This document shows, piece after piece, positions 27,472 through 55,006 of a stretch of 64,000 nucleotides of DNA. This DNA comes from Planctomycetota bacterium (lineage in GTDB: Bacteria > Planctomycetota > UBA1135 > JACQFD01). Below the pieces are notes generated by a model. The model made no database searches. It saw nothing but the letters and a program-made list of their open reading frames with translations, and was not told the origin of the DNA. The translations under genes were made by a program, and so were the position numbers. The stretch's first letter is position 1. Each line of letters starts with the position of its first letter. The DNA lies in assembly GCA_046160785.1 (NCBI GenBank), contig JBJXHE010000017.1:8038-72037 (forward strand), given 5' to 3'.

Positions 27472-27897
27472 ATGGTTCGGGATTTATTATTAATCCACGG
27501 GCTCCGGATTCCGGGCTCCGAAGTAACTTTAACATTCGCGCGCTCGGGAGGGCCGGGCGGTCAGAACGTTAATAAAGTCGCGTCGAAGGCCGTGCTGCGC
27601 TGGAGCCTCGGCGCGTCGTCTCTTTCCGAAGATGTAAAATCGCGCCTCGCGGCCAAGCTCGCGGCCCAGATTACAAATACGGGCGATATTGTTATTTCAG
27701 CCTCGGAATACCGCGACGCGCCGCGAAACGCCGAGGCCGCGGTTTCGCGGCTGGAATTGATGTTAAACAATGCGCTTCGCGTCGCGAAAAAACGAAAAGC
27801 TACAAAACCAAAATACGGATCTGTTGTAAAGCGCCTCGAACACAAACGAGCGCACGGCAATCTTAAGAAGTCGCGGCGGGTTTCGGGCGACGAGTAA
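27472..27897 (+). CDS. arfB: Alternative ribosome-rescue factor / peptidyl-tRNA hydrolase ArfB
   Basis: The protein is 141 aa with a GGQ motif (GGPGGQNVNKV) and a basic C-terminal tail (KKRKATKPKYG...KKSRR). Confidence 0.8.
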   Translation: MVRDLLLIHGLRIPGSEVTLTFARSGGPGGQNVNKVASKAVLRWSLGASSLSEDVKSRLAAKLAAQITNTGDIVISASEYRDAPRNAEAAVSRLELMLNNALRVAKKRKATKPKYGSVVKRLEHKRAHGNLKKSRRVSGDE

Positions 27898-36410: not shown

Positions 36411-38189
36411 TCACAGTCCGATCGTCTTGCAAAAACTGGGGTCGACGCTGGCCACTACGCGATTTCGAGCTTCCTTCAGACGCGGAGTATCTAATTCTTC
36501 TTTGATGCCGCCTTCGAGGGCCGCTGCGAGATGAAGCCTCGCCTCGTCGGCTTTTCCGAGCGCCGCTAACAAATGTGAATATACAAAACGCATTCGCGCG
36601 CCGCCTCGGCCCGTCTTCACAAGATCGTCTAACACAACAATTCCGAACGGCGCGCGTTTTTGATTTAATAATACAATTGAGTAATCGATTAACAATCGCC
36701 CCGTCGGGTTCAGCCGCGATGCAATTTGAATTTCAACAAGAGCGTCTTCATAACGTTCGAGTCGCGCAAGCAAATCCGCGGCGTCGAGGTGCGAGGCGGC
36801 GTTGTCAGGATCGAGTTGTATCGTTTCGCGCCGCGTCGCGAGCGCTTCTTCATAACGATTCCGATAAGCTAATAAACCCGATTTGATACCTAATGCTTCG
36901 ACGCAACGGGCGTCTTTTTCGAGCGCCTGGTTTGCTAATGATTCCGCTTCGGGTACGCGGCCGTATTCGAGATGCCACGACGCGACGCGCGCGAGCACGC
37001 GTGGATCGCCATTACAATTCCGCAGCGCTTCCAAATACCAACGTTCCGCTTCCTTCAATTCATTAAAATGTAACAATACGTCGGCGTACGCGAGCGCGAC
37101 CGTCGAATCCGACGGCGCTCGCTGCGCGGCAAGAGCGAGCGCGCTTCGAGCGGAATCATAACGATTTGCTTCGGCGAGCCGGCCCGCGCAAATGCACAAT
37201 ACGCGGCCCGACGCTGCGGGATGCGCGGCCGCCTTTTCTACAATTCGCACGGCATCGTCGTGCCGCTGGTCGCGATCATAAACTTTGAGAATGCCAAGAA
37301 TCGACGCCTCGTGGCCCGGGTCGATCGCAAGCGCGTAACGAAAGTAAGTTTCGCCTTCTGTTGCATTCCCGCGTGTTAATAATGATCCAATGGTAGCAAG
37401 CGTCAGCGGATCGGCCGGATCAATTTCGAGAGCCTTTCGTAACAATTCTTCGGCTTCCTTGGCGGCGCCTTGCTCGGCGAGAAACCGCGCGTAGTCACCG
37501 AGAAGGCGCGTCGAACGCGGATACTTCTCAATTCCTTTTCTTAGTATTTCAACCGCGTTCTTGCGGTCGCCTCGATCCACATAATATTTCGCGTGCCAGC
37601 CGAAAACGCGGTCGCTCGGAGAGCCCACTAAAAATGCTTGCTTAAATTCACGCTCGGCGGCTTCCGCGTTTCCAAGTTTATGTTGTAAATATCCGTAGTA
37701 TCCGCGCAGTTCGGGATCGTTCGGTAATTGTTGTAATACGATTTCGGCTTGAAGCGCCGCGTCCGCGAGCCGGCCGCACGCGCCGAGCACAATAGATAGT
37801 TCGAGCCGCGCGTCTATTGCATCGCGTGCATTACTTGTATTTGTTTTAGTATTTGTATTAGTATTATTAACGCTGTCGCTTGCTAATAAATTTTCAAGCA
37901 TCCGCAGAGCGTCGCTCGCGCGGCCAGTTCTTGTATAAATCGAAGCGAGCGCGACGGTGAGTCTAGGATGTTCATGATGCGCGGCGAGCGATCGCGCCAG
38001 GCGTTCTTCGGCCTCTTGTAAATTTCCGCGATCACGGTCGCGCTCTGCAAGCGCAATCACTACAGATGGCTCATCCGATGCTAATTTTTCGGCCCATCGC
38101 AGCGCGCGCTGGCCCGCGTGCGGCTCCGCCCGCGCGGCGCGCGTTGCGTCGGCATAACGAATCAGGAATTTTGCAATTGAGGTGCGCAC
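36411..38189 (-). CDS. Tetratricopeptide-repeat protein
   Basis: There are more than 12 TPR-like units (A..Y..AL..DP patterns) along 592 aa. An internal low-complexity stretch reads NNTNTNTKTNTSN. Confidence 0.8.
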   Translation of the reverse strand: MRTSIAKFLIRYADATRAARAEPHAGQRALRWAEKLASDEPSVVIALAERDRDRGNLQEAEERLARSLAAHHEHPRLTVALASIYTRTGRASDALRMLENLLASDSVNNTNTNTKTNTSNARDAIDARLELSIVLGACGRLADAALQAEIVLQQLPNDPELRGYYGYLQHKLGNAEAAEREFKQAFLVGSPSDRVFGWHAKYYVDRGDRKNAVEILRKGIEKYPRSTRLLGDYARFLAEQGAAKEAEELLRKALEIDPADPLTLATIGSLLTRGNATEGETYFRYALAIDPGHEASILGILKVYDRDQRHDDAVRIVEKAAAHPAASGRVLCICAGRLAEANRYDSARSALALAAQRAPSDSTVALAYADVLLHFNELKEAERWYLEALRNCNGDPRVLARVASWHLEYGRVPEAESLANQALEKDARCVEALGIKSGLLAYRNRYEEALATRRETIQLDPDNAASHLDAADLLARLERYEDALVEIQIASRLNPTGRLLIDYSIVLLNQKRAPFGIVVLDDLVKTGRGGARMRFVYSHLLAALGKADEARLHLAAALEGGIKEELDTPRLKEARNRVVASVDPSFCKTIGL

Positions 38190-38248
38190 GAAAAGTTTTC
38201 CGCGGCAATCTTATAACTTGCGAAATCTTCCTGTTCTCGCCGCGTCTC

Positions 38249-38276
38249 TCAACTCTATGGGGTTCGCGGTCGATGA
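38249..38276 (+). promoter_or_regulatory. Candidate sigma-28 (FliA)-type promoter upstream of motA
   Basis: TCAAC-N15-GTCGATGA is compared with the enterobacterial/Bacillus consensus TAAA-N15-GCCGATAA. It lies ~60 nt upstream of the motA ATG. The consensus for this phylum is unknown. Confidence 0.25.
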
Positions 38277-38334
38277 TCGGGTGCGCCAGCGGTTTCCGCG
38301 GGCGCAAACTCCGCCCTGCGTTATTGGAGAGACA

Positions 38335-39123
38335 ATGGACCTTGCGTCGATTCTGGGAATAATTGTAGCAATCGGAATGATCCTGCTCGGGCAGATCCTC
38401 GAAGGAGGACACCCTGGATCATTAATGCAAATAACAGCTTTTATTATTGTTATGGGCGGCACGGTCGGGGCCGTCATGGTGCATTGCACACTCGCCGATT
38501 TCTTGCGCGGACTCAAAATGGCGAAGGGCGTCTTTTTTGATAAGAAAATTCATATAGCACATACGCTCGAAGAATTAGTTAATTTAGCATCGCTCTCGCG
38601 CCGCGAAGGATTGATAGCGCTCGAATCTAAGATTTCCGAAATTAAAGATCCATTCTTAGCAAGAACGCTGGAGCACGCGGTCGACGGCGTTTCAGCTGTA
38701 GATTTGCGCAATTTGATGGAATCGGATTTGGAAATGGAAGACCGCCAATTGTTAAGTGGCGCTTCCGTATTTGAAACGGCCGGCGGATATGCGCCGTGCG
38801 TCGGAATTTTGGGCGCGGTGCTCGGACTTATTCACGTCATGGAAAACCTCGACGATCCGAGCAAGCTCGGCCCCGGCATCGCGGTCGCATTTGTTGCTAC
38901 AATTTACGGCGTCGGCGCGGCAAATTTATTTTTCTTGCCGATGGGAAGTAAACTAAAACGAAAGATACAAATAGAAGCTCTCGAAAAGCAAATGATCATC
39001 GAGGGCGTGTGCGCGATTATTGAAGGCGTGAACGCGAGCGTGATGAAAAAACGCTTACATTCGTTCGTGGCGCAGCTCGACCCGAAGGCGGCCGCCGAAC
39101 ACGCAAAGGAAGGGAAGAAGTAG
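38335..39123 (+). CDS. motA: Flagellar stator protein MotA
   Basis: ATG 38335 is preceded by GGAGAGA. The sequence MDLASILGIIVAIGMILLGQILEGG and the C-terminal TM3-TM4 plug region (GPGIAVAFVATIYGVGAANLFFLP) fit MotA. Confidence 0.85.
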   Translation: MDLASILGIIVAIGMILLGQILEGGHPGSLMQITAFIIVMGGTVGAVMVHCTLADFLRGLKMAKGVFFDKKIHIAHTLEELVNLASLSRREGLIALESKISEIKDPFLARTLEHAVDGVSAVDLRNLMESDLEMEDRQLLSGASVFETAGGYAPCVGILGAVLGLIHVMENLDDPSKLGPGIAVAFVATIYGVGAANLFFLPMGSKLKRKIQIEALEKQMIIEGVCAIIEGVNASVMKKRLHSFVAQLDPKAAAEHAKEGKK

Positions 39124-39154
39124 TCTTCACCGCGCGTGAATTAATAATAATATA

Positions 39155-39889
39155 ATGGGTAAGAAGAAGGGTCATAGCGAGGGACACGTGAACCACGAGC
39201 GATGGCTCGTTTCCTACGCCGATTTTATTACACTACTATTCGCGTTTTTTGTTGTTATGTACGCGATCTCAGACTTAAACTCACGCAAAGCGAAGCAAGT
39301 GTCTCAATCTGTAAAATTCGCAATGCACTTCGCGGGATCGGGCGGCACAAACGAAATTGGCATTTTCGGGGGAAAATCAATGGATAAGACTGCGCCTCAG
39401 AGCGGCGGCCAAGTGGGTTCGATGGAACAGTGGGTGCGCGAGTCGACGACGGTTTACGAATTCTTAGCAAAAGAATTAAAAGATGAATTAACAAAAACTG
39501 AGGAAACATCGCGAAAACTCGACGAACGCGGAGTTGTTATATCTCTTCCGGCGCGCTGGCTCTTCGAAACGGGTTCGACGCGAACGACGGAGAAAGCGGA
39601 AAAGTATCTAAAAACCATGCTCGAAGGTGCGAAAAAGTATCATAAAGACGTGATGATCGCGGGGCTCACGTCGCGCGTTCAATTCCCGGCAGGCTCCAAG
39701 TTTACAGATAGCACGTCGTTACAATTGGGAAGATTAGCGACATTGGAGCGAATGGTAGTGGATCAGCTACAATTCCCGGCGGACCGCGTGAAGGTAATGT
39801 CGGAAACTAACAAAAAGGCAGCGGGCGGATACGCGTCGCCGGCCCAGGTGGAGCGGGCAGCGTTGATTGAATTGATAATATTGAGATAG
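39155..39889 (+). CDS. motB: Flagellar stator protein MotB (divergent OmpA-like C-domain)
   Basis: RWLVSYADFITLLFAFFVVMYAIS contains the conserved Asp in the TM helix. The gene follows motA by 31 nt. Confidence 0.75.
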   Translation: MGKKKGHSEGHVNHERWLVSYADFITLLFAFFVVMYAISDLNSRKAKQVSQSVKFAMHFAGSGGTNEIGIFGGKSMDKTAPQSGGQVGSMEQWVRESTTVYEFLAKELKDELTKTEETSRKLDERGVVISLPARWLFETGSTRTTEKAEKYLKTMLEGAKKYHKDVMIAGLTSRVQFPAGSKFTDSTSLQLGRLATLERMVVDQLQFPADRVKVMSETNKKAAGGYASPAQVERAALIELIILR

Positions 39890-39971
39890 AGATTGCGGGT
39901 TGGGTTACATGGCGCGAGAAAGAGGCGCGGTCTCACTTCTTATAGCGAACGGAATTATGCTGATGTTAATG

Positions 39972-40098
39972 AACGCTCCCGCATAGCGCCGCTTCGGCGT
40001 AAATCCCCATGCTCGCTAAAACAAAACGCGACGCAAAGCGTCGCGTTTTATTTTGATGCTGCGCGGGAGACGCCTCCGCGGCGCTACGCGGGAGCGTT
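39972..40098 (+). repeat. Structured repeat element E1 (127 nt): long closing stem, two conserved 29-nt blocks, apical terminator hairpin
   Basis: The closing stem is AACGCTCCCGCaTAGCGCCGC / GCGGCGCTAcGCGGGAGCGTT, 21 bp with one A-C mismatch. Blocks 39995-40023 and 40051-40079 are identical to the E2 blocks. The apical hairpin AAAACGCGACGC-aaa-GCGTCGCGTTTT+ATTTT spans 40023-40054. Confidence 0.8.
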
Positions 40099-40134
40099 AG
40101 TTTACAGTTAGCCACACAGTGCGTGAATGAGAGA

Positions 40135-40164
40135 AACGGGGACAATCCCCGTTATTTTTTATTT
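40135..40164 (+). terminator. Intrinsic-terminator-like hairpin T1 facing rightward transcription
   Basis: AACGGGG-acaat-CCCCGTT is followed by ATTTTTTATTT. The T-run overlaps stop TAA (40159-40161) of the minus-strand orphan gene. Confidence 0.5.
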
Positions 40165-40929
40165 AAACCACGAAATATCATGTCGAAGGTCGCTGTTATA
40201 AATCTTCTGGTAGGCGTCAGCGATGCGCTGTTGCGACATTGAATCGTTAGTCCACTCGTATTCGCGTATTAGATACTCTCTCGGAACAATATACTTAAAG
40301 CACTGAATCGTTTGTGAATACTCGTCTCGAGCGTTCGCATCTTCGCTAGTAACGTGATCGATACAATTCTTTATCCAAAACAAGATCAATAAATTCACGA
40401 TTAATGATATAATGAATGTGAGGGTCGCACTCAACGCCAGAATTCGAATCCAACGAGTCCGTTGCGTATCAACTAAATTCTTGAATCTCCTCACCGCATT
40501 TACAAGAAGAACAATGATCACTATCATAACGACGCAGACGAGTGCGAGAGGTACGATAAACAACAAAGGGGAATTCGCGGTGCCGCCCAGCACAAATAGA
40601 TATCCAATTATTAAGATTGGCAGATAGGGGAGGGCCGCTAACAAAACTAGACACTCAACGGATAACAGGAAGCAATCACACGCGAGGCTCATCAACGCAT
40701 ATCTTCCGTTTGCAATGAAAGACAGCATCGATAACGCCGGATACAAAATTATCAAAAAATATAATCCAGGTCGAATATCTAACATCACCCGAAAATCGAT
40801 GGAACCTTGTTTTATTAATATAGGATCCAGGAACAACAAGACCGAAGAAACAAAGCAAGCGGCCAGGCACTGAAGTAATAACTTATTTTTAACAGCAAAG
40901 AAGTGCAACTTCTCAGTGAGTCGTTGCAT
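40159..40929 (-). CDS. Orphan polytopic membrane protein (about 6 TM helices + ~70-aa soluble C-terminus), AT-richer than its neighbours
   Basis: The ORF is 256 aa with an ATG start. Six hydrophobic segments can be read by eye. I recognise no family. The DNA is visibly AT-richer than the flanking genes, but this was judged by eye and not computed. Confidence 0.55.
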   Translation of the reverse strand: MQRLTEKLHFFAVKNKLLLQCLAACFVSSVLLFLDPILIKQGSIDFRVMLDIRPGLYFLIILYPALSMLSFIANGRYALMSLACDCFLLSVECLVLLAALPYLPILIIGYLFVLGGTANSPLLFIVPLALVCVVMIVIIVLLVNAVRRFKNLVDTQRTRWIRILALSATLTFIISLIVNLLILFWIKNCIDHVTSEDANARDEYSQTIQCFKYIVPREYLIREYEWTNDSMSQQRIADAYQKIYNSDLRHDISWFK

Positions 40930-40960
40930 TGGCGTTACTCGCGACTGTTAGTTAACAGAA

Positions 40961-40988
40961 CGATAAAAGAACGGGGACAGTCCCCGTT
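40961..40988 (-). terminator. Terminator-like hairpin T2 facing leftward transcription, upstream of the orphan gene
   Basis: The plus strand reads AACGGGG-acagt-CCCCGTT (40970-40988). On the minus strand the hairpin is followed by CTTTTATCG. T2 is 18/19 identical to T1. Confidence 0.45.
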
Positions 40989-41027
40989 CTTCCTGGTGTC
41001 ACCTTCTTCACTCATAATTGCTATTAA

Positions 41028-41151
41028 AGCTCGGGGCGTCGCGCTGCGGAGGCGTCTCCCGCGCAGCATCAAAACAACAGATTGCGCGTAGCGCGATCTG
41101 TTGTTTTAGCGAGCATGGGGATTTACGCCGTAGCAGCGCGATGCCCGAGCT
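41028..41151 (-). repeat. Structured repeat element E2 (124 nt), an inverted copy of E1
   Basis: Read on the minus strand, the stems are AGCTCGGGCaTCGCGCTGC ... GCAGCGCGAcGCCCCGAGCT. They pair but differ in sequence from E1. Blocks 41102-41130 and 41046-41074 are exact reverse complements of the E1 blocks. The 17-bp apical hairpin is at 41071-41107. E2 overlaps the stop codon at 41150-41152. Confidence 0.8.
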
Positions 41152-42130
41152 ATCCTTCGTCATCCGTCATCGCTCTTCCCGCCGCCGCGACCACCGGATC
41201 TGGATAATTACCATAACGGCGTTCCATGCGGGCGTCCATGTCGGTTTCGGCCAGCGCGACGAGGCCGCCGAAGCGGCCGGCTCGTAAACATTCGCGAACG
41301 ATAACGATCAGTTGAGTTAACAAAAACAGAACTGTTATATTAAGATACGTCGCTTCGCCGGCGCTTGCGAGTTCGACGCACCACGCGAGTCCGTAAAGTA
41401 ATATTAATTCCAGCGCGAACGGGATGATTCCGGCGGTAAGCGCGGAGAGCGGGCGGCGGAAGAATAAGGATGTTCCGTGAAGCGCCGCCATGAACGCGCT
41501 GCGGCCTCCGCGAACGGCGATCGACGCGCGGCCGAGGTCGGATACTAAAATAATAAATGCAACGCTCAGCGCGAAGCCGGCCGTTTGTATATTTACAAAT
41601 AAATTAGCGGAGCCTTCCGTGGCAAATTCGCGGAGTTCGGTGGAATCGGAATCGGTCAGAAATTTTTGTAGTGATTCAAAGGGCAGGCCGTAAAAAATCC
41701 AGCGTGCCGCGCCGATGGCCGCGAGCGATAATATTGCAAGCCGCAGAAAGCGTACAAAACGCGCTCCGCCGCCCGAACAGAATGCTTTTAATCCCGCGCG
41801 CGCGTTGCGTTCGTGGCGGTGTACTAATATTTCGAGCCACCCGCCCGTTGAAAACAATCCTAACAAAAACGCGCCCAGGATCGACGCGAGCAGCGCCGGT
41901 TCCGCCGTTTGTAACTTATCGCGCAAGTCGAAGAAAATTGTATATTCCAACTCCGGGCCGAGAATGGAGGGGTCGGCGCGGTGCAGGGTGCTCGCCCCGA
42001 AGGCGCGGCCAAACGTTAGCGCCGCCGGAAGCGCGAGCGCAAAATAACCTAAACACAACGCTAATAAAATTCGGCCGCGAACCGATGCATACAATATTGA
42101 GCCGAAGACGCCTTCAAGCACGCGCTTCAT
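41150..42130 (-). CDS. Polytopic membrane protein of unknown function, translationally coupled to the M1 peptidase
   Basis: The 326-aa protein has several long hydrophobic segments. Its start overlaps the peptidase stop by 4 nt (42127-42130). Confidence 0.6.
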   Translation of the reverse strand: MKRVLEGVFGSILYASVRGRILLALCLGYFALALPAALTFGRAFGASTLHRADPSILGPELEYTIFFDLRDKLQTAEPALLASILGAFLLGLFSTGGWLEILVHRHERNARAGLKAFCSGGGARFVRFLRLAILSLAAIGAARWIFYGLPFESLQKFLTDSDSTELREFATEGSANLFVNIQTAGFALSVAFIILVSDLGRASIAVRGGRSAFMAALHGTSLFFRRPLSALTAGIIPFALELILLYGLAWCVELASAGEATYLNITVLFLLTQLIVIVRECLRAGRFGGLVALAETDMDARMERRYGNYPDPVVAAAGRAMTDDEG

Positions 42131-45028: not shown

Positions 45029-45697
45029 TTACTTCTTAACTTTCACGCTCTTTAGCATTTCTTCAAAAATGGGTTTCGCGTCCGTAACAGTTCTCGCGGG
45101 GCCGGTAAGTTTAAAGAAGTATCCGCCGTCGGCCTGATCCAGCATTGCAACAATCATTTTTGCACCTGCGATCTTGCCTTTTACTTCGCCGGTGGGCGTC
45201 GTATCTGTAAAATTGCCGTCGCCCTCGAAGATCTTTGCGGTCGCGGCGCCGAGCTGCAATTCCCGAATTGTAGCTTTATCGCGCGTGAGCGGTGTTCCGT
45301 CGGGAAGCGAGAGCTGGCTCGCCCAGCGATCGACGTTCTGATCGAAATTCCCAGCGCCGCCTTTAAAGAAGAATACAATAATTCCCGCGTCGGCGGAGTC
45401 GCCGCCCGAACTTGGAACTAACAATTCCGCCACGCGCATCGTCGAAGCCGGTTTTGTATATTTCCATCCCTTTGGAACTTCGAATTCAATTCCAGCAGCT
45501 GTTACTTTACCCGCGTTCTCAACACCGGCAGCGTGTGGATTTGGAGTATTCGGTTTCACCGGCCCCGGCGTGCGCGCCTGTTCGCTCGGCAACGGAGGAA
45601 GTTTGCGTGAAGACTTGTCGTCGGGCCGGCACGCGGCGGCCAGCGAAATAACTAATACTAACGGAACGCACAGCGACGAGCGGCGGATGTGTTGCAT
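45029..45697 (-). CDS. Lipoprotein of unknown function (operon gene D)
   Basis: The lipobox is VISLAAAC. The 222-aa protein has a Pro-rich linker followed by an alpha/beta-looking domain. Confidence 0.65.
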   Translation of the reverse strand: MQHIRRSSLCVPLVLVISLAAACRPDDKSSRKLPPLPSEQARTPGPVKPNTPNPHAAGVENAGKVTAAGIEFEVPKGWKYTKPASTMRVAELLVPSSGGDSADAGIIVFFFKGGAGNFDQNVDRWASQLSLPDGTPLTRDKATIRELQLGAATAKIFEGDGNFTDTTPTGEVKGKIAGAKMIVAMLDQADGGYFFKLTGPARTVTDAKPIFEEMLKSVKVKK

Positions 45698-45777
45698 TTC
45701 CCAATTATGCGGCGTTTCAAATCAAAACGCGATGCTCATATTCAATCTCTTCAGCGAGTGCGCGGGGCGCGCAATCG

Positions 45778-46404
45778 TCATTTGCCGTTTCTTATTGTTG
45801 CGACCGCTTGCGCCGCGACGAGCCCCGCGAATCGCGCGGGAGAAACCTGCGTGAGCGTCCAATTGTAAGAATCGACGGAGCGGGCCGAATAGTTAGCATA
45901 TGCACTTTCGACTGCGTTCGCCGCATCGCGGTCGGCCATGTCGAAATGGGCATTGCAACTCCATAACGTTAATCCGGAATTCGCCGAGATCATATCTAAT
46001 CTCAATCCTAAATTCTGCGGCGGATACGCGCGGAAAGCGGTCACGGCTCCGAACAGAACGGCGTCGGCGCCGTGGCGAATTGCTAATTCTAGAATCGTTT
46101 CTAACTTATATTTTCCCGTGCGCCGCGGATTATCATTATTAGCGAAGCGGTCGTCGCTCAGGTCGAGACTTATCATTTCAATCGACGTTCCCTTCTCGAA
46201 TTCTTCGACAAACGCGCGCTCGACCGCGACGACGTCGGCGCCGCCGGCCGTCTCGTCCGCGAGCGGCACAAACACAACGCGCCGCAAGTTTAAATTTACA
46301 AATTCTTCGGAGCGAAATGCGGGCACTGTTCGCATCGTGTCCGACACCGCGGAACACGCGCCGGCGCAACACGCAAGAACTGTTATAAAGGTAATTCGTA
46401 ACAT
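45778..46404 (-). CDS. Lipoprotein, possibly LpoB/CsgG/LPP20-like fold (operon gene C)
   Basis: The lipobox region is TVLACCAGAC. The motif ADAVLFGAVTAFRAYPPQNLGLRLDMISANSGLTLW resembles the strand-loop-strand signature of that lipoprotein superfamily. This rests on my memory of the motif only. Confidence 0.55.
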   Translation of the reverse strand: MLRITFITVLACCAGACSAVSDTMRTVPAFRSEEFVNLNLRRVVFVPLADETAGGADVVAVERAFVEEFEKGTSIEMISLDLSDDRFANNDNPRRTGKYKLETILELAIRHGADAVLFGAVTAFRAYPPQNLGLRLDMISANSGLTLWSCNAHFDMADRDAANAVESAYANYSARSVDSYNWTLTQVSPARFAGLVAAQAVATIRNGK

Positions 46405-46409
46405 TGCGT

Positions 46410-47084
46410 TTACTTATGATCCGCCGCGCGGTCGGCCGGTTTTTGTTCATTTGCCGGACGCGACTCGGCATTCGCTACAACTTTCGCGGCTGGCGCCGGG
46501 GGCGGGTCAACCGCGGGATCAATAACAAGTCCGTTGTCGGCTGCGATCTTTAATGATCGCTCCAGCAGAATTTTAGTTTCGATCGATTCCTTTTCGGATT
46601 CGGCGACGCGCAGCGCCGCCGTCACGAGCCGTTCCTGGAGATCGCGAATTTTACTTTGCATTCGATCGCGTTCAGAGCGCGTCGTCTCAAGTTCATTTTG
46701 TAATGATTTCATTTCCTTTTGAATATCTTCGAGCTGCTTTTGCGTTTTTGTATAGTTCTCCTCGAACTTTACAGCTTTCTCTTTCTCCACTTTTAGTTCA
46801 TTTCGCGTTCTGTTAAGAATCTGCGGAATGCTTTCTTCGCCGACGCTTTCAGACGCGCGCCTCGACGAGAGCATCGGGTCGTTCGCCCCGCGCGGTTTCG
46901 GATTATTATTATCCTGAGTCGCGGAGGCGTCGACGGCCACGCCGCCGGAATTGATATCATTTGTGAGATCGGCTCCCAAACCGGCATTCTGAGGTTCCCC
47001 GGTCTGCGAACCTCGGCCCGTATTGCACGCGGCAAAAGTTAATATAACAAATAAAAAAACGAGACTTTGGGTGAAGCGATTCAT
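46410..47084 (-). CDS. Coiled-coil lipoprotein (operon gene B)
   Basis: The lipobox is ILTFAAC. A ~110-aa heptad-rich segment reads EKEKAVKFEENYTKTQKQLEDIQKEMKSLQNELETTRSERDRMQSKIRDLQERL. The start overlaps gene A by 4 nt. Confidence 0.65.
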   Translation of the reverse strand: MNRFTQSLVFLFVILTFAACNTGRGSQTGEPQNAGLGADLTNDINSGGVAVDASATQDNNNPKPRGANDPMLSSRRASESVGEESIPQILNRTRNELKVEKEKAVKFEENYTKTQKQLEDIQKEMKSLQNELETTRSERDRMQSKIRDLQERLVTAALRVAESEKESIETKILLERSLKIAADNGLVIDPAVDPPPAPAAKVVANAESRPANEQKPADRAADHK

Positions 47085-47374
47085 ATTCCGGCCTCCGTTG
47101 CAATTTTAGTTGTTGCCGCTTTAGTAATTGCCGCATTCATTGTTGCCGCATTCATTGTTGGGTCCGCGTCGCGGTCTAAAACGAGTTCGATCTCCATCGC
47201 GCGTCCGCAAACGCAATCGATTCGGACGGCGCGGACGGCGCCGTCGGCACGAATTAATTGTAAGTTAGGTGCCGGATGGACGGTGTGCTCTCCATTCACG
47301 GCCGGAGTGGTTTCGTGAATCTTGAGTTGATCGCGTTTGATGATACGCGCGGGAGCTGGGGAGGTTGTGCGCAT
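47081..47374 (-). CDS. Small protein of unknown function (operon gene A)
   Basis: The 97-aa protein has an ATG start and no signal peptide. An in-frame tandem 15-bp duplication at 47130-47159 encodes TMNAA twice. It is coupled to gene B. Confidence 0.5.
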   Translation of the reverse strand: MRTTSPAPARIIKRDQLKIHETTPAVNGEHTVHPAPNLQLIRADGAVRAVRIDCVCGRAMEIELVLDRDADPTMNAATMNAAITKAATTKIATEAGI

Positions 47375-47408
47375 CTGTAAACTACTAGTATAAACTACAA
47401 ATCGATGG

Positions 47409-47436
47409 ACTATAAAAATGGGGGGGGAAATGTAAA
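47409..47436 (-). promoter_or_regulatory. Candidate sigma70-type promoter with a homopolymeric C8 tract in the spacer
   Basis: The minus strand reads TTTACA-TTTCCCCCCCCATTTT-TATAGT, with a 16-nt spacer. It lies 35 nt upstream of the gene A ATG and directly after the stop of the preceding ORF. Confidence 0.4.
47420..47427. repeat. Homopolymeric G8 (C8 on the minus strand) tract
   Basis: Read directly from the sequence: ...AAAAATGGGGGGGGAAATG... Confidence 0.95.
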
Positions 47437-47700
47437 TTATGCAGTACGGTCTACGATTTGTCCCGTTTCCGGCGGCGGCGGAACAGCTTCGCCAGCTGTA
47501 GCATCCGGGTCTTCTGTATCGTTTGCGGCTTTTGTATCATCTTCATTTTCTGAGGCGTCTTCGTTTTGTTGTGATTCTTCTGCGTCCTCATCCAGGGTGA
47601 ATTTTTGTTGTCGATCTCGAGGACGTTCGCCCAGCCGTGGTATCGACTCCGGAGGTCCCGGGCCGACCATCGGAGGAACGCGTTGAATCGGGAGCTCCAC
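47437..47700 (-). CDS. Small acidic, probably disordered protein downstream of fliA
   Basis: GTG 47700 is preceded by GGAGG at a 6-nt spacing, and lies 1 nt after the fliA stop. The 87-aa protein has a D/E-rich centre (DEDAEESQQNEDASENEDD). Confidence 0.4.
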   Translation of the reverse strand: MELPIQRVPPMVGPGPPESIPRLGERPRDRQQKFTLDEDAEESQQNEDASENEDDTKAANDTEDPDATAGEAVPPPPETGQIVDRTA

Positions 47701-47701
47701 T

Positions 47702-48451
47702 TCATACCTCCGCCGCCTCTGCGGCCTGCGCCGGCTCCATGATGGATCGTAAGTGTACAATTGCGCGCGCGTGAATTTGCGATGCGCGGGATTCTGAGAA
47801 TCCCATCACTTCCCCGATCTCTTTTAATAGTAAACTCTCCGCGTAATATAAAGTTATCACCTGCCGCTCAACTTTCGGTAATTGTGCAATTGCTTGGGCC
47901 AGTTTTGCTCGCAGTTCATTTTGCGCGGCGATGTTCGACGGATCGGCCTCTTTTGATGATTTTAACAATGCGCCGATTCCCGAATCGTCCGATGGATTAT
48001 CATCAATCGAGACGACCTGCGCGGTGTGATGTGCTAATAATGCTTCGTCGAGTTCTTCTGTAGTAAGTCCCGTTTCCTCAGCGAGTTCTTCAGGGCTTGG
48101 CGGCCGCCCTTCGCGCTGTTCAATTTTCCGGCGCGCGTTCTCAATTAAACGATAACGATCGCGGCGCGTGCGCGGCAGGAAATCTAATCTTCGCAATTCA
48201 TCAAGAATAGAACCGCGAATATGAATATAAGCATGCGTCGAAAACGCGGTTCCGCGAGAAACATCATACGTTTGAACCGCGCGCCACAGTCCGATCGCGC
48301 CCCACGCGCACAGATCATCGCGGTCGAGCGTCGGCGGCAGATCGATTGCTAATCTTCCGACGACAAATTTTACTAACAAAAGAGAATCTTCAAATCGCTT
48401 TTGCATCTGCTCCGGAGTTGTCATTTCCGCGTAGGCGTCCGCGCGTGCCAT
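47702..48451 (-). CDS. fliA: Flagellar sigma factor sigma-28
   Basis: The 249-aa protein has sigma-70 regions 2, 3 and 4 (DDLCAWGAIGLWRAVQTYD..., region 4 ESLLLKEIGEVMGFSESRASQIHARAI). It follows flhF-flhG. Confidence 0.9.
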   Translation of the reverse strand: MARADAYAEMTTPEQMQKRFEDSLLLVKFVVGRLAIDLPPTLDRDDLCAWGAIGLWRAVQTYDVSRGTAFSTHAYIHIRGSILDELRRLDFLPRTRRDRYRLIENARRKIEQREGRPPSPEELAEETGLTTEELDEALLAHHTAQVVSIDDNPSDDSGIGALLKSSKEADPSNIAAQNELRAKLAQAIAQLPKVERQVITLYYAESLLLKEIGEVMGFSESRASQIHARAIVHLRSIMEPAQAAEAAEV

Positions 48452-48735
48452 CAGATGTTTCCTCCGGGCTTTGTTATCTTAACAGAAGCGGCCGGCGCCT
48501 CGGGCGTCGCGCTTTGTGTAGTATCCAGCGCGCGTTCTAATAAATTATATAATATTGGCACAATGCACACGATTGCTAATGCTGAGATGAGTCCGCGAAA
48601 AGCCGCGGTCCACTCGGTGGTTCCGTTGAGTAGTGAAAGCCCGGCCGCGAGGGCGAAGGCGCCCGCCGACGTCCTGGCAACGACTACTTGGCGCGGCGGT
48701 AACATCGCTGGCCAATTTCGTCGCTTTAGATCCAT
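48451..48735 (-). CDS. Small membrane protein between flhG and fliA
   Basis: The 94-aa protein has two hydrophobic segments. Its stop overlaps the fliA ATG (TGATG, 1-nt overlap) and its start overlaps the flhG end by 10 nt. Confidence 0.5.
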   Translation of the reverse strand: MDLKRRNWPAMLPPRQVVVARTSAGAFALAAGLSLLNGTTEWTAAFRGLISALAIVCIVPILYNLLERALDTTQSATPEAPAASVKITKPGGNI

Positions 48736-49616
48736 TCGCTTGAGGACGCGGGCGCGGCTAATTGAATTGTTGTAACCGCATTTGTAACTCTTCCTGCGAG
48801 CAGCCTTAACGCGGCGGCCGCGGATGAACCCGGCTCCGCAAGGACGAGGGGCTTGCGGGCGGCGGTCGCTCGCGTCACGGCCGCGTCGCGCGGAATCCAG
48901 CCAAAAGATTCAATTTGCGAACCGAGAAAGCGCCCGACAACTGCTACAAATCGCTCGGCGAGCTGGCGCGCTTCGACCGGGCCCGGAGCTTCATTAACAA
49001 TAAGTCCGATTTTTGTTAATGGCGCGCGTGTGTGCGCAATCTTAACAACTGCGTACGCGTCCGCGATCGACGCGGGGTCGGGCGTCGCGACGACAAGTAA
49101 TAAATCCGCGGTGTGCGCGATCGCGAGTCCGTCCTGATGAATTCCGGCCGGAAGATCAAATATAGCAATATCGCGCGACTCGGCGCCTTTGTTAATCATC
49201 GAAAGAATCGCAGAACGTTTTGTTACATCGAGCTGCGCGTAGTTTTCAATTCCGCGCGGCGCGAGAAGCACGTCCACGCCCGATGGGCCGCGCACGACGA
49301 GTTGTTCCACGCTGCGATTAGAAGTGATGCCGTGGCTTAAATTATAATTTCGCGGGAGATTTAATATTGCATCGAGCGAGGAAAGCCCAAAATCACAATC
49401 AACTAATAATATTTTAGGAGCGATGCCGCGGCGCACGCCGCGCGCGAGCGCGACTGCAAGATTCGCCGCAATGGTTGATTTCCCGACGCCGCCCTTTCCG
49501 CCCGTCACACCGATTCGGGGCGTCCGGCGCGAGCGCGCCGGTTGATACATTTGAATGGTATCAACAGGATTGTTAATTAATAATAGTGAATCGGCTTGCG
49601 TGGGCATGTTAAACAT
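48726..49616 (-). CDS. flhG: MinD/ParA-type flagellar number regulator FlhG
   Basis: The deviant Walker A is GVTGGKGGVGKST. It lies downstream of flhF. Confidence 0.85.
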   Translation of the reverse strand: MFNMPTQADSLLLINNPVDTIQMYQPARSRRTPRIGVTGGKGGVGKSTIAANLAVALARGVRRGIAPKILLVDCDFGLSSLDAILNLPRNYNLSHGITSNRSVEQLVVRGPSGVDVLLAPRGIENYAQLDVTKRSAILSMINKGAESRDIAIFDLPAGIHQDGLAIAHTADLLLVVATPDPASIADAYAVVKIAHTRAPLTKIGLIVNEAPGPVEARQLAERFVAVVGRFLGSQIESFGWIPRDAAVTRATAARKPLVLAEPGSSAAAALRLLAGRVTNAVTTIQLAAPASSSEWI

Positions 49617-50625
49617 TCGCTCGAGCCGCTTCCGCGCTCGCCTTTAAGATAAAATGAGCCGCGCGCTCGCCGGTCGCGCGTTCGAGATCGCCAGGCACTT
49701 CCTGCCCTGTACACAAAAACGCTAAAGGTAATTTTTGTTCGAATGCAACAGTTATCGCGGGCCCGCAATGTTCTGTTTCATCGAGTTTTGTAATCACCAA
49801 ACCCGTGGGCTTCGTTGCCTGGAATTCACGCGCCGCGGAGCGGACGGATTCGAGCGATTGCGTCGCGGATAATACTAATAATGTTTCGAGCCGCTCCGCG
49901 TGTCCGAGCGTTGACGCGAGCTCGGCCAGGCGCTCGGCGTCGTTCGGGCTGCGGCCCGTTGTATCAATTAAGATAATATCACAATCCCGATACTTCTCCG
50001 GCGCTCGTATCAAATCCGCGGGTGTAAATAATACACCAAACGGCGCGGCGAGCATGTCGGCGTACGCCCTCAGCTGCTCGACCGCGCCGATTCGATATGT
50101 ATCAAATGTGAGCAATGCAACTTTACGTTTCGACTGGCGCGTGAGCCGCCCGGCGAGTTTAGCAATCGTCGTCGTCTTTCCGACGCCGGTCGGCCCCACC
50201 AATGCAACTAATCGCGGGCCGCTGGCGTGCGGCGGGCGCGATGGCAAGATTGGAATCTGGTTTGCTAATGTTAGTGATGCAGCGTCGAAGGCTAATGTTC
50301 CTCCGTGCGGAGCGGCCGCGGCGAGTGCAAGACTGCGCAGGTCGCCCGTGATTCCCGCGCTGCGCAGCCGTTCGTTCAAGTCCTGCAGGCCCGCGGGCGC
50401 ATTCGACTCAAAATTAGCAATTCGCGCGCGCAGCAATTTTAACTCTTGCTGTATCGCTAATGATTCTCCGCCGGAGCCCGTTCGCGCGAAATTGTTAACA
50501 ACGACAAGCTCGACGCCGTCCGCCGTCGCGCGCGTTGTTAATATTCGAGCCTGGTCGCCCAGCTCTTCACGCGCGAGCAGCAGCGCCTCGCGAGCGGACG
50601 GAGCAAAAAAGCTGCGCACTCTCAT
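49609..50625 (-). CDS. flhF: SRP-type GTPase FlhF
   Basis: The G-domain motifs are VALVGPTGVGKTTTIAKLA, DTTGRS and ITKLDE. The N-terminus is FlhF-like (MRVRSFFAPSAREALLLAREELG). Confidence 0.85.
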   Translation of the reverse strand: MRVRSFFAPSAREALLLAREELGDQARILTTRATADGVELVVVNNFARTGSGGESLAIQQELKLLRARIANFESNAPAGLQDLNERLRSAGITGDLRSLALAAAAPHGGTLAFDAASLTLANQIPILPSRPPHASGPRLVALVGPTGVGKTTTIAKLAGRLTRQSKRKVALLTFDTYRIGAVEQLRAYADMLAAPFGVLFTPADLIRAPEKYRDCDIILIDTTGRSPNDAERLAELASTLGHAERLETLLVLSATQSLESVRSAAREFQATKPTGLVITKLDETEHCGPAITVAFEQKLPLAFLCTGQEVPGDLERATGERAAHFILKASAEAARANV

Positions 50626-52766
50626 TAGTTAACTCCCACCATCGCTAACGATTCGACGGATTTCGCGGACTGCGCTTCTTGATACGAAAGCACTGGAACG
50701 CGCGGCGCGCTTGGAATTAATAGATCGCGCACGAATTTACGAATATTTCCGCGCACGAGCACGACGGGTTCGCGACCCGATTTGGAAGATGCAGAAGCAG
50801 AATTAACAATTTGATCGACGACGCGCTTGAGTTCGGTCGCCGTCGGAGCGTCGGCGTTTGGATTTGTTAACATCGATGAAATGCGGGCTTCCACCGCAGG
50901 GTCGAGCGTAATGGCAAAGATCTTTCCGTCGCCGCCCGCGACGCGCTCGCAAATTCCGCGGCCAAGCGCCGTTCTTACAATTTCGGTGAGGCGGTCTGTA
51001 TCTTTAGTTTGCGCGCCGTGGTCGGCGAGCGTTTCTAATATTTGCGGCAGATGTTTAATAGAAATGCGCTCGCGCAGCAGATTCTTCAATACTTTTTGGA
51101 TCTCGCCGATTGTTAATATTCCCGGCACAAGTTCTTCGACGACAGCGGGGGATTTCTTTTTAATAGTTTCGAGGAGATGCTTCACGTCGTCGCGGGTGAT
51201 CACTTCGTGCGCGTGGCGGCGCAGCAGTTCTGTAACGTGTGTCACCAGCACAGAGACCGGCTCAATTAATGTATATCCTAACAATTCCGCGTCCTGGCGC
51301 TGGGCCGCTGGAATCCATTTCGCGGGAAGCCCGAAGACGGGCTCTGTTGTAGCAATTCCCTGAATGGGCTTTGCGCGTCCCGACGGATCCATCGCTAATA
51401 AATGGCCAACCATCAATCGGCCCGCGCCGACTTCCTCGCCGTTGACTAAGATTCGATACGCGTTCGGGTCGAGCCGCATATTATCTAATATTCGAACGGG
51501 CGGTACTACAAATCCTTCGGTCGAGGCAAACTGCCTTCTTAACATTGCAATATGATCTAATATTCCCGCGCCATTGCCGGGGTCGACGAGTGGAATTAAA
51601 CGATAACCGACCTCCGCGCTGAGACGGTCGACTTGTAACAGATCGTCAACCTTCTTCGGATCGGCGTGTTCCGCCTCGGCTCCCTTTGCGTTAGCATTCG
51701 CGTCGGCTCCGTGGCCTTTCTTGCCTTTCGCGGTGCCTTTCGCATGTGTAGTATTCGCGGCGCCTTCATTTTCATACAATTGTTCGACGCTGCGCGTTTG
51801 ATTATAAAATATATAACAAACCGCTGCGAGCGCGACGAACGGTAACATGGGTATTCCGGGCAGCAGAGCGATGCCGCAGAGAACCGCCGCAGTTGTTAAG
51901 ATCGCGCGAGGATGGCTGAGAAAGGGCAAAGCCATTTCCTTCGAGAGCCGGGCTTCCATCGCTGTTTTTGTTACAATGACGCCCGACGCAGTGGAAATTA
52001 ACAATGCGGGAATCTGGCTCACGAGGCCGTCGCCAACGCTAAGAACCGCGTAACGCTGAACGGCTTCTCCGAGCGGGCGGCCGTCCATCAGCACACCTAT
52101 CAATACTCCGCCGACGAGATTAATTATTGTAATTAACAATCCCGCGATCGCGTCTCCGCGAACAAATTTGCCGGCGCCGTCCATCGCGCCGTAGAACTCG
52201 GCTTCTCTACCAATAATTTCTCGCCTCGAGCGCGCTTCTTCGCCTGTGATCAATCCGGCATTCATGTCGGCGTCGATCGCCATTTGTTTTCCGGGCATGG
52301 CGTCGAGAGTGAATCGCGCCGCAACTTCGCTGATTCGATTGCTACCTTTCGTAATAACTACAAATTGAATGACGAGCAGAATTGCAAATACAACAAGTCC
52401 AATAATAATATTCCCGCCGACGACAATTTTACCAAACGCGTCGATGAGGTCGCCCGCATGGCCGGTCGACAGGATGCTGCGCGTCGATGCGACGTTGATG
52501 CCGAGGCGCGCCAAAGTTGTAAAAAGAAGCAGCGTTGGAAATGTTGCAAACTCGAGTGCTTTGCGCGTATTTAATGAAATGAGCAATATGCCGACGCTGA
52601 GCGCAATATTGCATGCAATCGCGAAATCTAATATGAGCGGCGGCAGCGCCGCGACGAGTACGACGAGAATGGATATAACAAATCCGCCGAGCAGCCAATC
52701 GCCGTGCTTCAGCACTCCGCGCGCGAGCGGCTTCAGCGACGATTCGATTTGAAGCGAGGTCATCAT
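50625..52766 (-). CDS. flhA: Flagellar type III export gate protein FlhA
   Basis: The 713-aa protein has the conserved TM domain, the FHIPEP-like region (FVRGDAIAGLLITIINLVGG) and a cytoplasmic C-domain. Confidence 0.95.
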   Translation of the reverse strand: MMTSLQIESSLKPLARGVLKHGDWLLGGFVISILVVLVAALPPLILDFAIACNIALSVGILLISLNTRKALEFATFPTLLLFTTLARLGINVASTRSILSTGHAGDLIDAFGKIVVGGNIIIGLVVFAILLVIQFVVITKGSNRISEVAARFTLDAMPGKQMAIDADMNAGLITGEEARSRREIIGREAEFYGAMDGAGKFVRGDAIAGLLITIINLVGGVLIGVLMDGRPLGEAVQRYAVLSVGDGLVSQIPALLISTASGVIVTKTAMEARLSKEMALPFLSHPRAILTTAAVLCGIALLPGIPMLPFVALAAVCYIFYNQTRSVEQLYENEGAANTTHAKGTAKGKKGHGADANANAKGAEAEHADPKKVDDLLQVDRLSAEVGYRLIPLVDPGNGAGILDHIAMLRRQFASTEGFVVPPVRILDNMRLDPNAYRILVNGEEVGAGRLMVGHLLAMDPSGRAKPIQGIATTEPVFGLPAKWIPAAQRQDAELLGYTLIEPVSVLVTHVTELLRRHAHEVITRDDVKHLLETIKKKSPAVVEELVPGILTIGEIQKVLKNLLRERISIKHLPQILETLADHGAQTKDTDRLTEIVRTALGRGICERVAGGDGKIFAITLDPAVEARISSMLTNPNADAPTATELKRVVDQIVNSASASSKSGREPVVLVRGNIRKFVRDLLIPSAPRVPVLSYQEAQSAKSVESLAMVGVN

Positions 52767-52786
52767 TTGTTATTTCTTCGCTGCTT

Positions 52787-53869
52787 TTATCGGCGAACGC
52801 CCCGGCGCAACCGGAATATAAATGCCAAAACTTCCGCGACGGCTTTATACAAATCCATCGGGATCGCGATTCCAACTTCGGCGGATTTGTAAAGTGCGCG
52901 CGCGAGCGGGGGATTTTCAACAATCGGGACGCCCGCTTCCGTTGCGATTTCGCGAATTTTCTTAGCTATCAAATCCTGGCCTTTCGCAACGACGATCGGC
53001 GCGTCGTCCGCGGGTTCGAGCCCGCCCGGCCTTCTGTAACGAAGCGCGACGGCGAAGTGCGTTGGATTTGTTATAACTACAGTTGCGGTTGGAACGTCGG
53101 CGAGCATTTTCCGCTGCGCCGCGGCGCGTTGCGCTTTCCGGATGCGCGCTTTAATCGCGGGGTCGCCCTGCGCTTGTTTATTTTCATCTTTTACTTCTTC
53201 TTTAGTCATGCGCATGTCGCGGCTGAACTGCCAGCGTTGATACAAAAAATCGAGCCCGCCGACGAGCAGCGTTGCCATCGCGATTCTAAATAATAATGAA
53301 AACGCGAGCGACGCGCCGGTTCCAAAACTTGCGCGCAGCGGCGCGCGCCCGAGCGTTAGCATCTGTCCTATCAAATCACCGCTCGCCGCATATACAATTC
53401 CAATAATGAACGCTAATTTCAAAAGTGCGGTTGAAAGCTGCACCAGCGACCGCGGCGAGAAGAGGCGCTTCATGCCAGTCGCCGGATCCATGCGCTCAAA
53501 CTTTAAATCTAACGTTTCCGTGCGCAGCCGGAAGCCCACTTGAAGATATGCAATAATCGCAGCGGAGCCGACCAGCCCCGCAAGCATCGGAAGCGCCGCG
53601 GGAGCGATTCGATTTGCGATTTGTACTAAATGACTACTGATCATGCTGAGGTCGACGTCGCCGCGCGGCACGCCCGCGAGAGTGTCGCGCAGGAAGTCTT
53701 GTAATACTAAGAATATCGGAGCTCCGGAAAGTCCGACAAGCCCGAGCCCGATCAATAACAAAACGGATTGTGATAATTCGGAACTGTATGCAACTTGCCC
53801 TTTGTTGGCCGCATCATCGAGCCGTTTGCCAGAGGCCTCCTCGGTACGTTGATCTTGATCGCCTGCCAT
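52787..53869 (-). CDS. flhB: Flagellar export switch protein FlhB
   Basis: The N-terminus reads QDQRTEEASGKRLDDAANKGQV. The NPTH autocleavage site is present (VVITNPTHFAVAL). Confidence 0.95.
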   Translation of the reverse strand: MAGDQDQRTEEASGKRLDDAANKGQVAYSSELSQSVLLLIGLGLVGLSGAPIFLVLQDFLRDTLAGVPRGDVDLSMISSHLVQIANRIAPAALPMLAGLVGSAAIIAYLQVGFRLRTETLDLKFERMDPATGMKRLFSPRSLVQLSTALLKLAFIIGIVYAASGDLIGQMLTLGRAPLRASFGTGASLAFSLLFRIAMATLLVGGLDFLYQRWQFSRDMRMTKEEVKDENKQAQGDPAIKARIRKAQRAAAQRKMLADVPTATVVITNPTHFAVALRYRRPGGLEPADDAPIVVAKGQDLIAKKIREIATEAGVPIVENPPLARALYKSAEVGIAIPMDLYKAVAEVLAFIFRLRRGVRR

Positions 53870-53896
53870 TGAATTATTATATTATCAACAAAAATA

Positions 53897-54682: not shown

Positions 54683-54700
54683 GGATTTCGCTTCGATTGA

Positions 54701-54976: not shown

Positions 54977-55006
54977 CAGATTAATTATGTTATACTTGTG
55001 GTTTAT

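Follow-up and report, generated by a model that had tools for sequence, protein, structure and literature searches.

Inverted extended hairpins with terminator-like apices on either side of a putatively acquired gene between convergent operons of a Planctomycetota bacterium

The motB junction and its inserted segment

The stretch of DNA analysed here, referred to as the window, comprises 64,000 nt (64 kb) of contig JBJXHE010000017.1 (positions 8,038 to 72,037; assembly GCA_046160785.1) from an uncultured bacterium of the Planctomycetota. It carries a pair of extended hairpin elements in inverted orientation, designated E1 and E2, with an open reading frame (ORF) between them, ORF256, the whole lying at the junction of two convergent operons. 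On the left is motB (39155-39889, plus strand), the last gene of the upstream motAB pair, and on the right, facing it on the minus strand, is a conserved gene for a 326-aa membrane protein (41150-42130), located downstream of an M1-peptidase-like gene. The stop codon of motB ends at 39889 and that of the 326-aa gene occupies 41150-41152, so that the two genes are separated by an interval of 1260 bp (39890-41149). Read from left to right, the junction consists of motB, 82 nt that separate its stop codon from E1, E1 itself, a spacer and a second hairpin (hpA), then ORF256 on the minus strand, followed by the counterpart of the second hairpin (hpB), a spacer, E2 and the stop codon of the 326-aa gene.

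Comparison of the junction with five syntenic relatives (L005, L006, L008, L013 and L014) showed that in all of them motB and the gene corresponding to the 326-aa gene (32x aa) are likewise convergent, with just 20-59 bp between their stop codons; in L008 a simple hairpin is present at this point. Homologues of the 326-aa protein share 49-58% amino-acid identity with it and are encoded in the same gene order on their contigs. As the C-termini of both flanking proteins are intact compared with those of the relatives (that of the 326-aa protein reads ...GRAMTDDEG*) and the relatives have only 20-59 bp here, the 1260 bp represent extra DNA, and the 1.26-kb interval is, on this comparison of sequences, a lineage-specific insertion. 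Two other Planctomycetota relatives carry insertions at the same junction that are unrelated to it, one of ~900 bp with three small ORFs (L007, 6969-7871) and one of ~2 kb, in which a 384-aa ORF is accompanied by an unrelated 113-nt hairpin at 11080-11192 (L012, 10969-12950), implying that the junction is a recurrent insertion hot spot.

E1 (39972-40098, plus strand), identified by its fold and by a covariance model, is an extended imperfect hairpin that forms the left arm of an inverted repeat; weaker pairing around it reaches 39964-40106. E2 (41028-41151, minus strand), identified by fold, alignments and the covariance model, is the same hairpin in inverted orientation and forms the right arm; the TAG stop codon of the 326-aa gene shares its last two bases with the closing stem of E2. 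Over 122 nt the two arms show 80% complementarity, at a distance of 946 nt from each other. A preliminary description of this DNA had presented E1 and E2 as two separate copies of an element at the 3′ ends of two convergent operons. The placement was correct in that E1 follows motAB, E2 abuts the stop of the 326-aa gene and each is read along its upstream gene, but ORF256 intervenes between them, and the two are better described as arms of one inverted repeat around a 1.26-kb gene-bearing insertion.

Within each arm lie two 29-nt blocks. Block 1, CGGCGTAAATCCCCATGCTCGCTAAAACA, is found at 39995-40023 (plus strand) in E1 and at 41102-41130 (minus strand) in E2; block 2, TTTTGATGCTGCGCGGGAGACGCCTCCGC, is found at 40051-40079 (plus strand) and 41046-41074 (minus strand), respectively. 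Each block has exactly two matches in the window, one per arm and on opposite strands, where none is expected by chance, which bears out the identity of the blocks reported earlier for the two ~125-nt copies. Between the blocks is an apical segment of exactly 27 nt in both arms. In E1 (40024-40050, plus strand) it forms a perfect 12-bp hairpin between an A-run and a T-run and is terminator-like on both strands. In E2 (41075-41101, minus strand) it forms 15 bp with one C.A mismatch, also flanked by A and T runs, and reaches 17 bp only on the antisense strand. The earlier statement that the apical hairpins are unrelated in sequence is therefore right (12/27 positions identical), as is the 12-bp length given for E1, but the 17 bp given for E2 do not apply to its sense strand.

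The similarity of the arms continues inward for ~36-39 nt as far as a second conserved hairpin, AACGGGGACARTCCCCGTT. On the E1 side this is hpA (AACGGGGACAATCCCCGTT followed by TTATTTTTTATTT; 40135-40153), separated from E1 by 36 nt and from the stop codon of ORF256 by 5 nt; on the E2 side it is hpB (AACGGGGACAGTCCCCGTT; 40970-40988), at a distance of 39 nt from E2 and located 41 nt before the start codon of ORF256, with CTTTTAT coming next on the minus strand. The two agree at 17/19 positions, their consensus being AACGGGGACA(A/G)TCCCCGTT, and in the window this hairpin is confined to the hpA and hpB sites. Each arm is thus a module of ~180 nt made up of the 125-nt extended hairpin, a 36-39-nt spacer and the second hairpin. 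This anatomy and the status of the interval as an insertion were read directly from the sequence and its comparison with the relatives. Beyond the arms, the flank of E1 and the flank of E2 are unrelated. Derivation of the left flank of E1 by decay from the 3′ end of the 326-aa gene was also considered, as this would prove a local inverted duplication, but the similarity is without significance, 905/2000 shuffled sequences scoring as well.

ORF256 (40159-40929, minus strand) encodes a 256-aa all-helical membrane protein in which five helices are predicted. Its GC content is 41%, compared with 52.5% for the window, and its GC at third codon positions is 0.48, compared with 0.55-0.60 in neighbouring genes. 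Three remote homologues of 255-261 aa have a C-terminal helical domain in common with it (best E = 2.6e-13), and these homologues of the same length show that ORF256 is a real gene. No E-like repeats were found flanking these three homologues. The gene is unannotated in the NCBI source record, as can be seen from the consecutive accessions of MotB and the 326-aa protein (MFN0205079.1 and MFN0205080.1), and its product is missing from the protein collection. No assignment was obtained for it in Pfam, NCBIfam or PADLOC, and its AlphaFold model is poor (predicted local distance difference test, pLDDT, 57.6). The analysis hence recovers an unannotated 256-aa membrane-protein gene.

Folding and conservation of the two arms

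Folding calculations showed that each arm forms a long imperfect hairpin with a free energy far below that of shuffled sequences: -84.5 kcal/mol for E1 (z about -10) and -75.7 kcal/mol for E2 (z -6 to -7.5), no shuffle equalling either value. The antisense strand was more stable in both arms (-92.7 kcal/mol for E1 and -85.6 kcal/mol for E2), since an A-C mismatch shared by the two arms turns into a G.U pair on the other strand. The outer stems were present as reported, CTCCCGC:GCGGGAG in E1 and CTCGGGC:GCCC(C)GAG in E2, as were the stems that follow them (GCGCCGC:GCGGCGC in E1), together with the GGCGT:ACGCC helix and the shared A-C mismatch. Conserved G.U pairs are present on each strand.

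A consensus structure calculated with RNAalifold from E1 and E2 contained 48 base pairs, 10 of which were changed on both sides with the pair kept, while no pair was changed on one side only and none was broken. Half of these compensated pairs (5/10) are in the two outer stems, whose 18 pairs are otherwise identical between the arms; the other five are in the apical hairpin, which has been replaced wholesale. When 10 random substitutions were placed in the 18 outer-stem pairs by simulation, all pairs stayed canonical in 67 out of 5,000,000 trials (~1e-5). In the same consensus structure ~19/29 positions of one block pair with the other block (~65%), with asymmetric bulges, contrary to the earlier view that the blocks are mostly not complementary to each other. 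The A-C mismatch, a 3x3 internal loop and the block bulges are kept identically in both arms. A covariance model built from the two copies scored E1 at 168 bits on the plus strand and 80 on the minus strand, and E2 at 169 bits on the minus strand and 64 on the plus strand; given sense scores of 168-169 bits against 64-80 on the opposite strands, the elements are asymmetric and truly inverted relative to each other. A duplex between the arms (E2 sense with E1 antisense) was calculated at -206.8 kcal/mol, compared with about -167 kcal/mol for two separate hairpins. Chimeric hairpins resulting from a crossover between the arms within the blocks were computed to be ~20 kcal/mol weaker. As the stems of each arm are matched although such chimeras are weaker by this amount, each arm appears to have evolved as a hairpin of its own.

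Conservation between the arms differs sharply from segment to segment. The blocks are identical at 29/29 and 29/29 positions and the second hairpin at 17/19, compared with 12/27 for the apex and 14/38 for the spacer. The neutral parts of the arms (spacer, 37% identity; apex, 44%) are therefore at or near saturation, and the blocks are identical at 58/58 positions. The compensated stems, like the invariance of the blocks next to randomised spacers, are direct observations on the alignment. Because all stem changes are compensated and the conserved blocks adjoin randomised spacers, the alignment supports the conclusion that E1 and E2 are structured and that their pairing is under selection, in agreement with the preliminary description, which had called them a selected structure. 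Since the spacers between the arms have been randomised while the blocks have stayed the same, the block sequence likewise seems to be under selection. In all, selection appears to act on three features, namely block sequence, stem pairing, and the length of both apex and spacer.

Other origins of this pattern were considered. Recent duplication of the arms is ruled out by the way in which divergence differs between segments. A single gene-conversion tract is unlikely, as it would need to skip the 27-nt apex. Hairpin-templated correction is also unlikely, given that both arms still have the same mismatch, 3x3 internal loop and bulges. That only two copies occur in 64 kb, and that these are adjacent, argues for a common origin of E1 and E2 rather than two draws from a dispersed family.

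Further copies, known families and comparable systems

The preliminary description had suggested that further copies of E be sought with a covariance model built from the two known ones. Repeat search, covariance model, blastn-short and nhmmer revealed no third copy in the window, and none was found in ~170 kb of the relatives' loci (10 loci) by covariance model, blastn-short or nhmmer. On the window and these 10 loci the covariance model returned generic GC-rich hairpins or terminators only; its best other match (L012, 14911-15058; 20.5 bits) lies inside a TPR coding sequence and is without block similarity.

Public collections were scanned with exact 20-mers, block 1 in genomes and viral contigs and block 2 in metagenomes and viral contigs (185,579 species-representative genomes, which do not include the source genome, JGI metagenomes and IMG/VR), a procedure by which diverged copies could be missed. 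No intergenic match to the block 20-mers was obtained in the genome, metagenome or viral collections, all matches being inside coding sequence. Block 1 is identical over 21 nt to the codons for LASMGIY at 4437-4457 of L001 and 4060-4080 of L002, two termite-gut-type Planctomycetaceae metagenome-assembled genomes, in a gene that we take to be glgC (glucose-1-phosphate adenylyltransferase); the antisense frame of both E copies reads VLASMGIYA. A further 20-mer match lies in a gene of a 135-kb viral contig (L003, L004). These coding-sequence matches are treated as coincidence, since a given 20-mer should turn up about once by chance in 1.2e12 positions. No match to E was found in plasmids and phages (blastn, distant mode), nor to the 3.2-kb locus in phages (megablast), and a search of 5.8 billion proteins for mis-called E copies by means of the shared open-frame peptide gave no candidates. 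A small protein gene running across E was also considered and discarded: one frame is open in both arms (72 and 51 aa), but its apical part is unrelated at the protein level and it has no homologues. The idea of a family is thus not borne out by the window, the relatives' loci or the public collections searched.

The statement that E belongs to no named family has stood. With Rfam 15 at gathering scores, the only match in the whole window was a tRNA at 13929-14002, and at the permissive threshold of E <= 10 the region 39800-41300 gave only weak terminator-like matches of 12-24 bits, far below gathering scores. No tRNA or tmRNA was detected by ARAGORN in 39500-41500, and no relevant tandem repeats were found. 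The preliminary description had also considered an attC-like substrate of a recombinase and a co-occurring transposase or recombinase gene. No transposase, integrase, invertase, RAYT or Y1/HUH domain was detected by Pfam in any ORF of the 64-kb window. The attC boxes (R'' RYYYAAC and R' GTTRRRY) are approached in E1 by AATGAAC (5/7) and GTTAGTT (6/7), but at the corresponding places E2 has GGATAGC and CTTTAAT, with no AAC or GTT; as the boxes do not hold in E2, the copies are inverted and no integrase is encoded in the window, an integron attC site was rejected. An inversion switch operating through E is disfavoured because the matched stems show no unresolved crossover, and an inverton was rejected because the outer stems of each copy match and the window encodes neither an invertase nor a recombinase. 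By the criteria applied, the E pair is not a member of the Rfam families and is not an attC site, a classical miniature inverted-repeat transposable element (MITE) or insertion cassette, an inverton or a tRNA-like gene, and we file it as a new orphan member of the bacterial intergenic palindromic and inverted-repeat elements.

Judged by analogy, the E pair would work most like a bidirectional terminator placed inside a REPIN-like extended hairpin, and at a larger scale it resembles a mobile insertion cassette. REPINs of Pseudomonas and other bacteria have invariant blocks and a less conserved, hairpin-forming spacer, and compensatory changes are common in them (Bertels and Rainey, 2011; PMC3116915). 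Repetitive extragenic palindromic (REP) sequences are preferentially located between convergent and unidirectional genes, often as inverted pairs (PMC3733652). Like a REPIN, E is a hairpin of ~100 nt with two invariant blocks and a length-constrained variable spacer that still forms a hairpin; compensatory changes are common, elements of this kind are extragenic and often located downstream of genes, and one scale up there are again two inverted palindromic units around a "spacer", which at the E locus is a gene. However, a genome with REPINs has tens to hundreds of them, linked to a RAYT gene, whereas E has two adjacent copies and no RAYT in 64 kb. The invariant 16-mers of REPINs are inverted copies at the outer ends, whereas the E blocks are internal and ~65% complementary, with variable outer stems, and E does not share the GTAG/CGTC tag. 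Of the defining REPIN features only the block-spacer-block pattern was found in the 64 kb.

With MIC231 of Bacillus cereus and MITE-bracketed resistance genes the locus shares one passenger gene, no transposase, inverted repeats, and presence or absence at a conserved site, the sites in L005, L006, L008, L013 and L014 being empty in relatives that are distant (49-58% amino-acid identity). Mobile insertion cassettes differ in having terminal repeats derived from insertion sequences, with conserved tips, and target-site duplications, neither of which was seen at the E locus; moreover, the E arms are themselves long hairpins with embedded terminators, and we know of no cognate insertion sequence or transposase for E. 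The ERIC/IRU elements of Enterobacteriaceae are comparable as 127-bp imperfect palindromes just downstream of genes in transcribed intergenic regions, of low-to-moderate copy number and with a proposed role as an RNA hairpin affecting mRNA fate. ERIC is nevertheless a family dispersed across genera without an embedded bidirectional terminator at its tip, and no sequence relationship to E was established in a comparison by eye with published ERIC primer sequences. A bidirectional intrinsic terminator has the same GC-rich apical hairpin with A-run and T-run flanks between convergent units, but it lacks the ~23 bp of extra covarying outer stem per side and the two invariant bulged 29-nt blocks. 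Integron attC sites agree with E in length range, in forming a single-strand hairpin with paired boxes, an unpaired central spacer, bulges and a variable terminal structure, and in being tied to a promoterless single-gene cassette. They differ in that the E sites are inverted and not direct, the R''/R' consensus is absent in E2, there is no integrase or cassette array, and in E the sequence of the inner part is conserved and not structure alone.

Possible roles of the arms and features elsewhere in the window

We tentatively favour, at a probability of roughly 0.42, the reading in which the two arms of an old, imperfect inverted repeat, E1 and E2, would serve as structured boundary modules around an acquired gene. 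RNA polymerase coming from either flanking operon, or leaving ORF256, would be halted at an apical hairpin with its U-run, and polymerase that passed the apex would be halted at the second hairpin. With two stops at each border, the three transcription units would be insulated from each other. Read-through RNA or transient single-stranded DNA could fold into the full ~48-bp duplex, whose invariant, asymmetrically bulged middle, formed by the two 29-nt blocks, may be the recognition site for a protein, for example a nuclease, an RNA- or DNA-binding protein or a recombinase. The arms may have arrived with the gene or may have arisen by local inverted duplication. Termination with insulation and protein recognition are the parts of this scheme that we infer. 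A terminator consensus scan flagged the E1 apex on the plus strand (40023-40049) and on the minus strand (40046-40031), and hpA on the plus strand. If functional, the locus would be a clean example outside Proteobacteria of an acquired gene that is lodged between convergent operons and shielded by paired structured modules with two terminator hairpins each.

Several observations weigh against the boundary-module reading. The terminator calls are consensus matches, and the E2 apex and hpB, in which the same layout is seen by eye, were not flagged by the scan, the E2 apex being missed owing to its mismatch. An efficient apical terminator would yield RNA without both arms of the stem, so that selection on the outer stems needs read-through or action at the DNA level; the same applies to the idea of a 3′-untranslated region (UTR) RNA element in the preliminary description, since bidirectional terminators at the apex leave half a hairpin in the transcript, and such an element can be retained only with read-through or as single-stranded DNA. 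A plain terminator has no need of two invariant 29-nt blocks. No sigma-70-like promoter for ORF256 was found by scanning between hpB and its start codon. No transposase is encoded in the window that would explain the insertion, and there is no target-site duplication at its outer borders, no direct repeat of >=3 nt being shared by 39969-39975 and 41149-41156.

The alternative that we rate highest, although we regard it as unlikely, is a dispersed, genome-specific palindromic family (REPIN-, REP- or ERIC-like) of which ORF256 landed between two independent or doublet copies, a trans-acting transposase such as a RAYT acting on single-stranded DNA hairpins that settle downstream of genes. Invariant blocks, a length-conserved hairpin spacer and compensatory changes match REPINs (PMC3116915), the convergent gap and the inverted pairing match the preference of REPs (PMC3733652), and another large foldback fills a convergent gap of the window at 10868-11329. 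Against this, just two copies occur in 64 kb, next to each other, none was found in the relatives' loci, and the block 20-mers are absent from the 185,579 species representatives, the JGI metagenomes and IMG/VR save for chance coding matches; no RAYT, Y1 or other transposase is encoded in the window. The invariant parts of REPINs are moreover their outer ends, whereas the outer stems of E vary, and the second hairpin pair with its length-matched spacers shows that the whole ~180-nt arm was duplicated and not E alone. Less probable again is a mobile gene cassette of the non-autonomous type, similar to a mobile insertion cassette or MITE composite, with E1 and E2 as its functional ends; here the blocks would bind a transposase or recombinase encoded elsewhere, and the unit would have been inserted at the terminator between the convergent genes. 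One passenger gene of slightly atypical composition, surrounded by long inverted repeats and absent from syntenic relatives at a junction that has also taken up the unrelated insertions of L007 and L012, fits this explanation, and exact internal blocks in otherwise diverged arms are what would be expected if only recognition sites were constrained. Against it stand the missing target-site duplication, outermost bases that vary, unlike the terminal inverted repeats of known transposons, the lack of a transposase in the window and of a second copy of the unit or its ends in the collections searched, and the three remote ORF256 homologues without flanking repeats; binding of double-stranded DNA would in addition leave the compensated stems unexplained. 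The least probable of all the readings regards E1-ORF256-E2 as a novel type of hairpin-ended cargo cassette, a "giant REPIN with a gene in its spacer", mobilised by a trans-acting HUH or tyrosine recombinase with specificity for single-stranded DNA hairpins. This enzyme would read the invariant bulged blocks, and its target sites would be terminators located between convergent genes. If this were true, the operons on either side would be spared any harm by the terminators embedded in the unit.

A regulatory RNA, either a cis- or trans-acting one (a 3′-UTR stability or processing element, or a small RNA) or a panhandle of E2 with E1 that forms in one transcript across ORF256 and controls its expression, seems improbable to us. 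The combination of conserved bulged segments with covarying stems and a variable apex is classical for a structured RNA, G.U pairs are conserved on each strand, and the inter-copy duplex, in which the blocks pair perfectly, is favoured energetically. However, Rfam gave no match even at permissive thresholds, the bidirectional terminators at the apices and the inner hairpins should bar transcripts that contain whole elements or both copies, no promoter-like site adjoins the elements, and the strand is ambiguous, as the antisense folds better in both copies. A panhandle in particular is at odds with the outer stems, which have diverged in such a way that pairing between the copies breaks and pairing within each copy stays. 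The view that E has no function and is a decaying local inverted duplication, shaped by intrastrand template switching and short-patch gene conversion, is held to be very improbable. That quasi-palindromes can acquire "compensatory", hairpin-preserving mutations by template switching is well established, and two adjacent inverted copies are the arrangement in which gene conversion happens. Template switching should, though, also have erased the A-C mismatch, the 3x3 internal loop and the block bulges, all of which are retained; gene conversion would need two tracts of ~35 nt placed symmetrically about an unconverted 27-nt apex; and conservation extends to the second hairpin and to the lengths of spacer and apex. 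E is an orphan nucleic-acid motif in which as few as two copies give an unusually clear signature of selection, in that the bulged blocks are invariant, the stems covary and the spacers have been randomised. Its wider value hinges on further copies: if the element were dispersed or mobile, Planctomycetota would have a new REPIN-like system, whereas a unique pair would be a local curiosity.

Other features of the window were noted. The E locus lies within a motility neighbourhood, since in addition to motAB (38182-39889) there is a flagellar export and regulation cluster on the minus strand (45029-56469), which encodes FliO, FliP, a Bac_export_1 protein (FliR-type), FlhB and FlhA together with an SRP54-type GTPase (FlhF-like), a ParA/MinD-like ATPase and a sigma-70-family (FliA-like) factor. 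The foldback at 10868-11329 (~460 nt) is unrelated to E and fills the convergent gap between a methylmalonyl-CoA mutase gene (ending at 10811, plus strand) and an 808-aa ORF (ending at 11378, minus strand). It has outer arms of ~95 nt with 81-88% complementarity, AT-rich palindromes inside, and two copies of a 35-nt hairpin, GGGGTCAGGCA...TGCCTGACCCC; folded as DNA it reaches -157 kcal/mol (z = -15.5). The foldback may be a MITE-like element, and its presence suggests that this genome collects palindromic structures at convergent junctions. Two tandem paralogous genes with VIT and von Willebrand factor A domains are located on the minus strand at 3306-5582 and 5746-8031 (758 and 761 aa); they are ~70-80% identical over stretches of DNA, at a spacing of 2518 nt. 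In a seemingly long convergent intergenic gap, a 141-aa ORF at 27472-27897 (plus strand) has an RF-1 domain with a GGQ motif and probably encodes an ArfB-type peptidyl-tRNA hydrolase.

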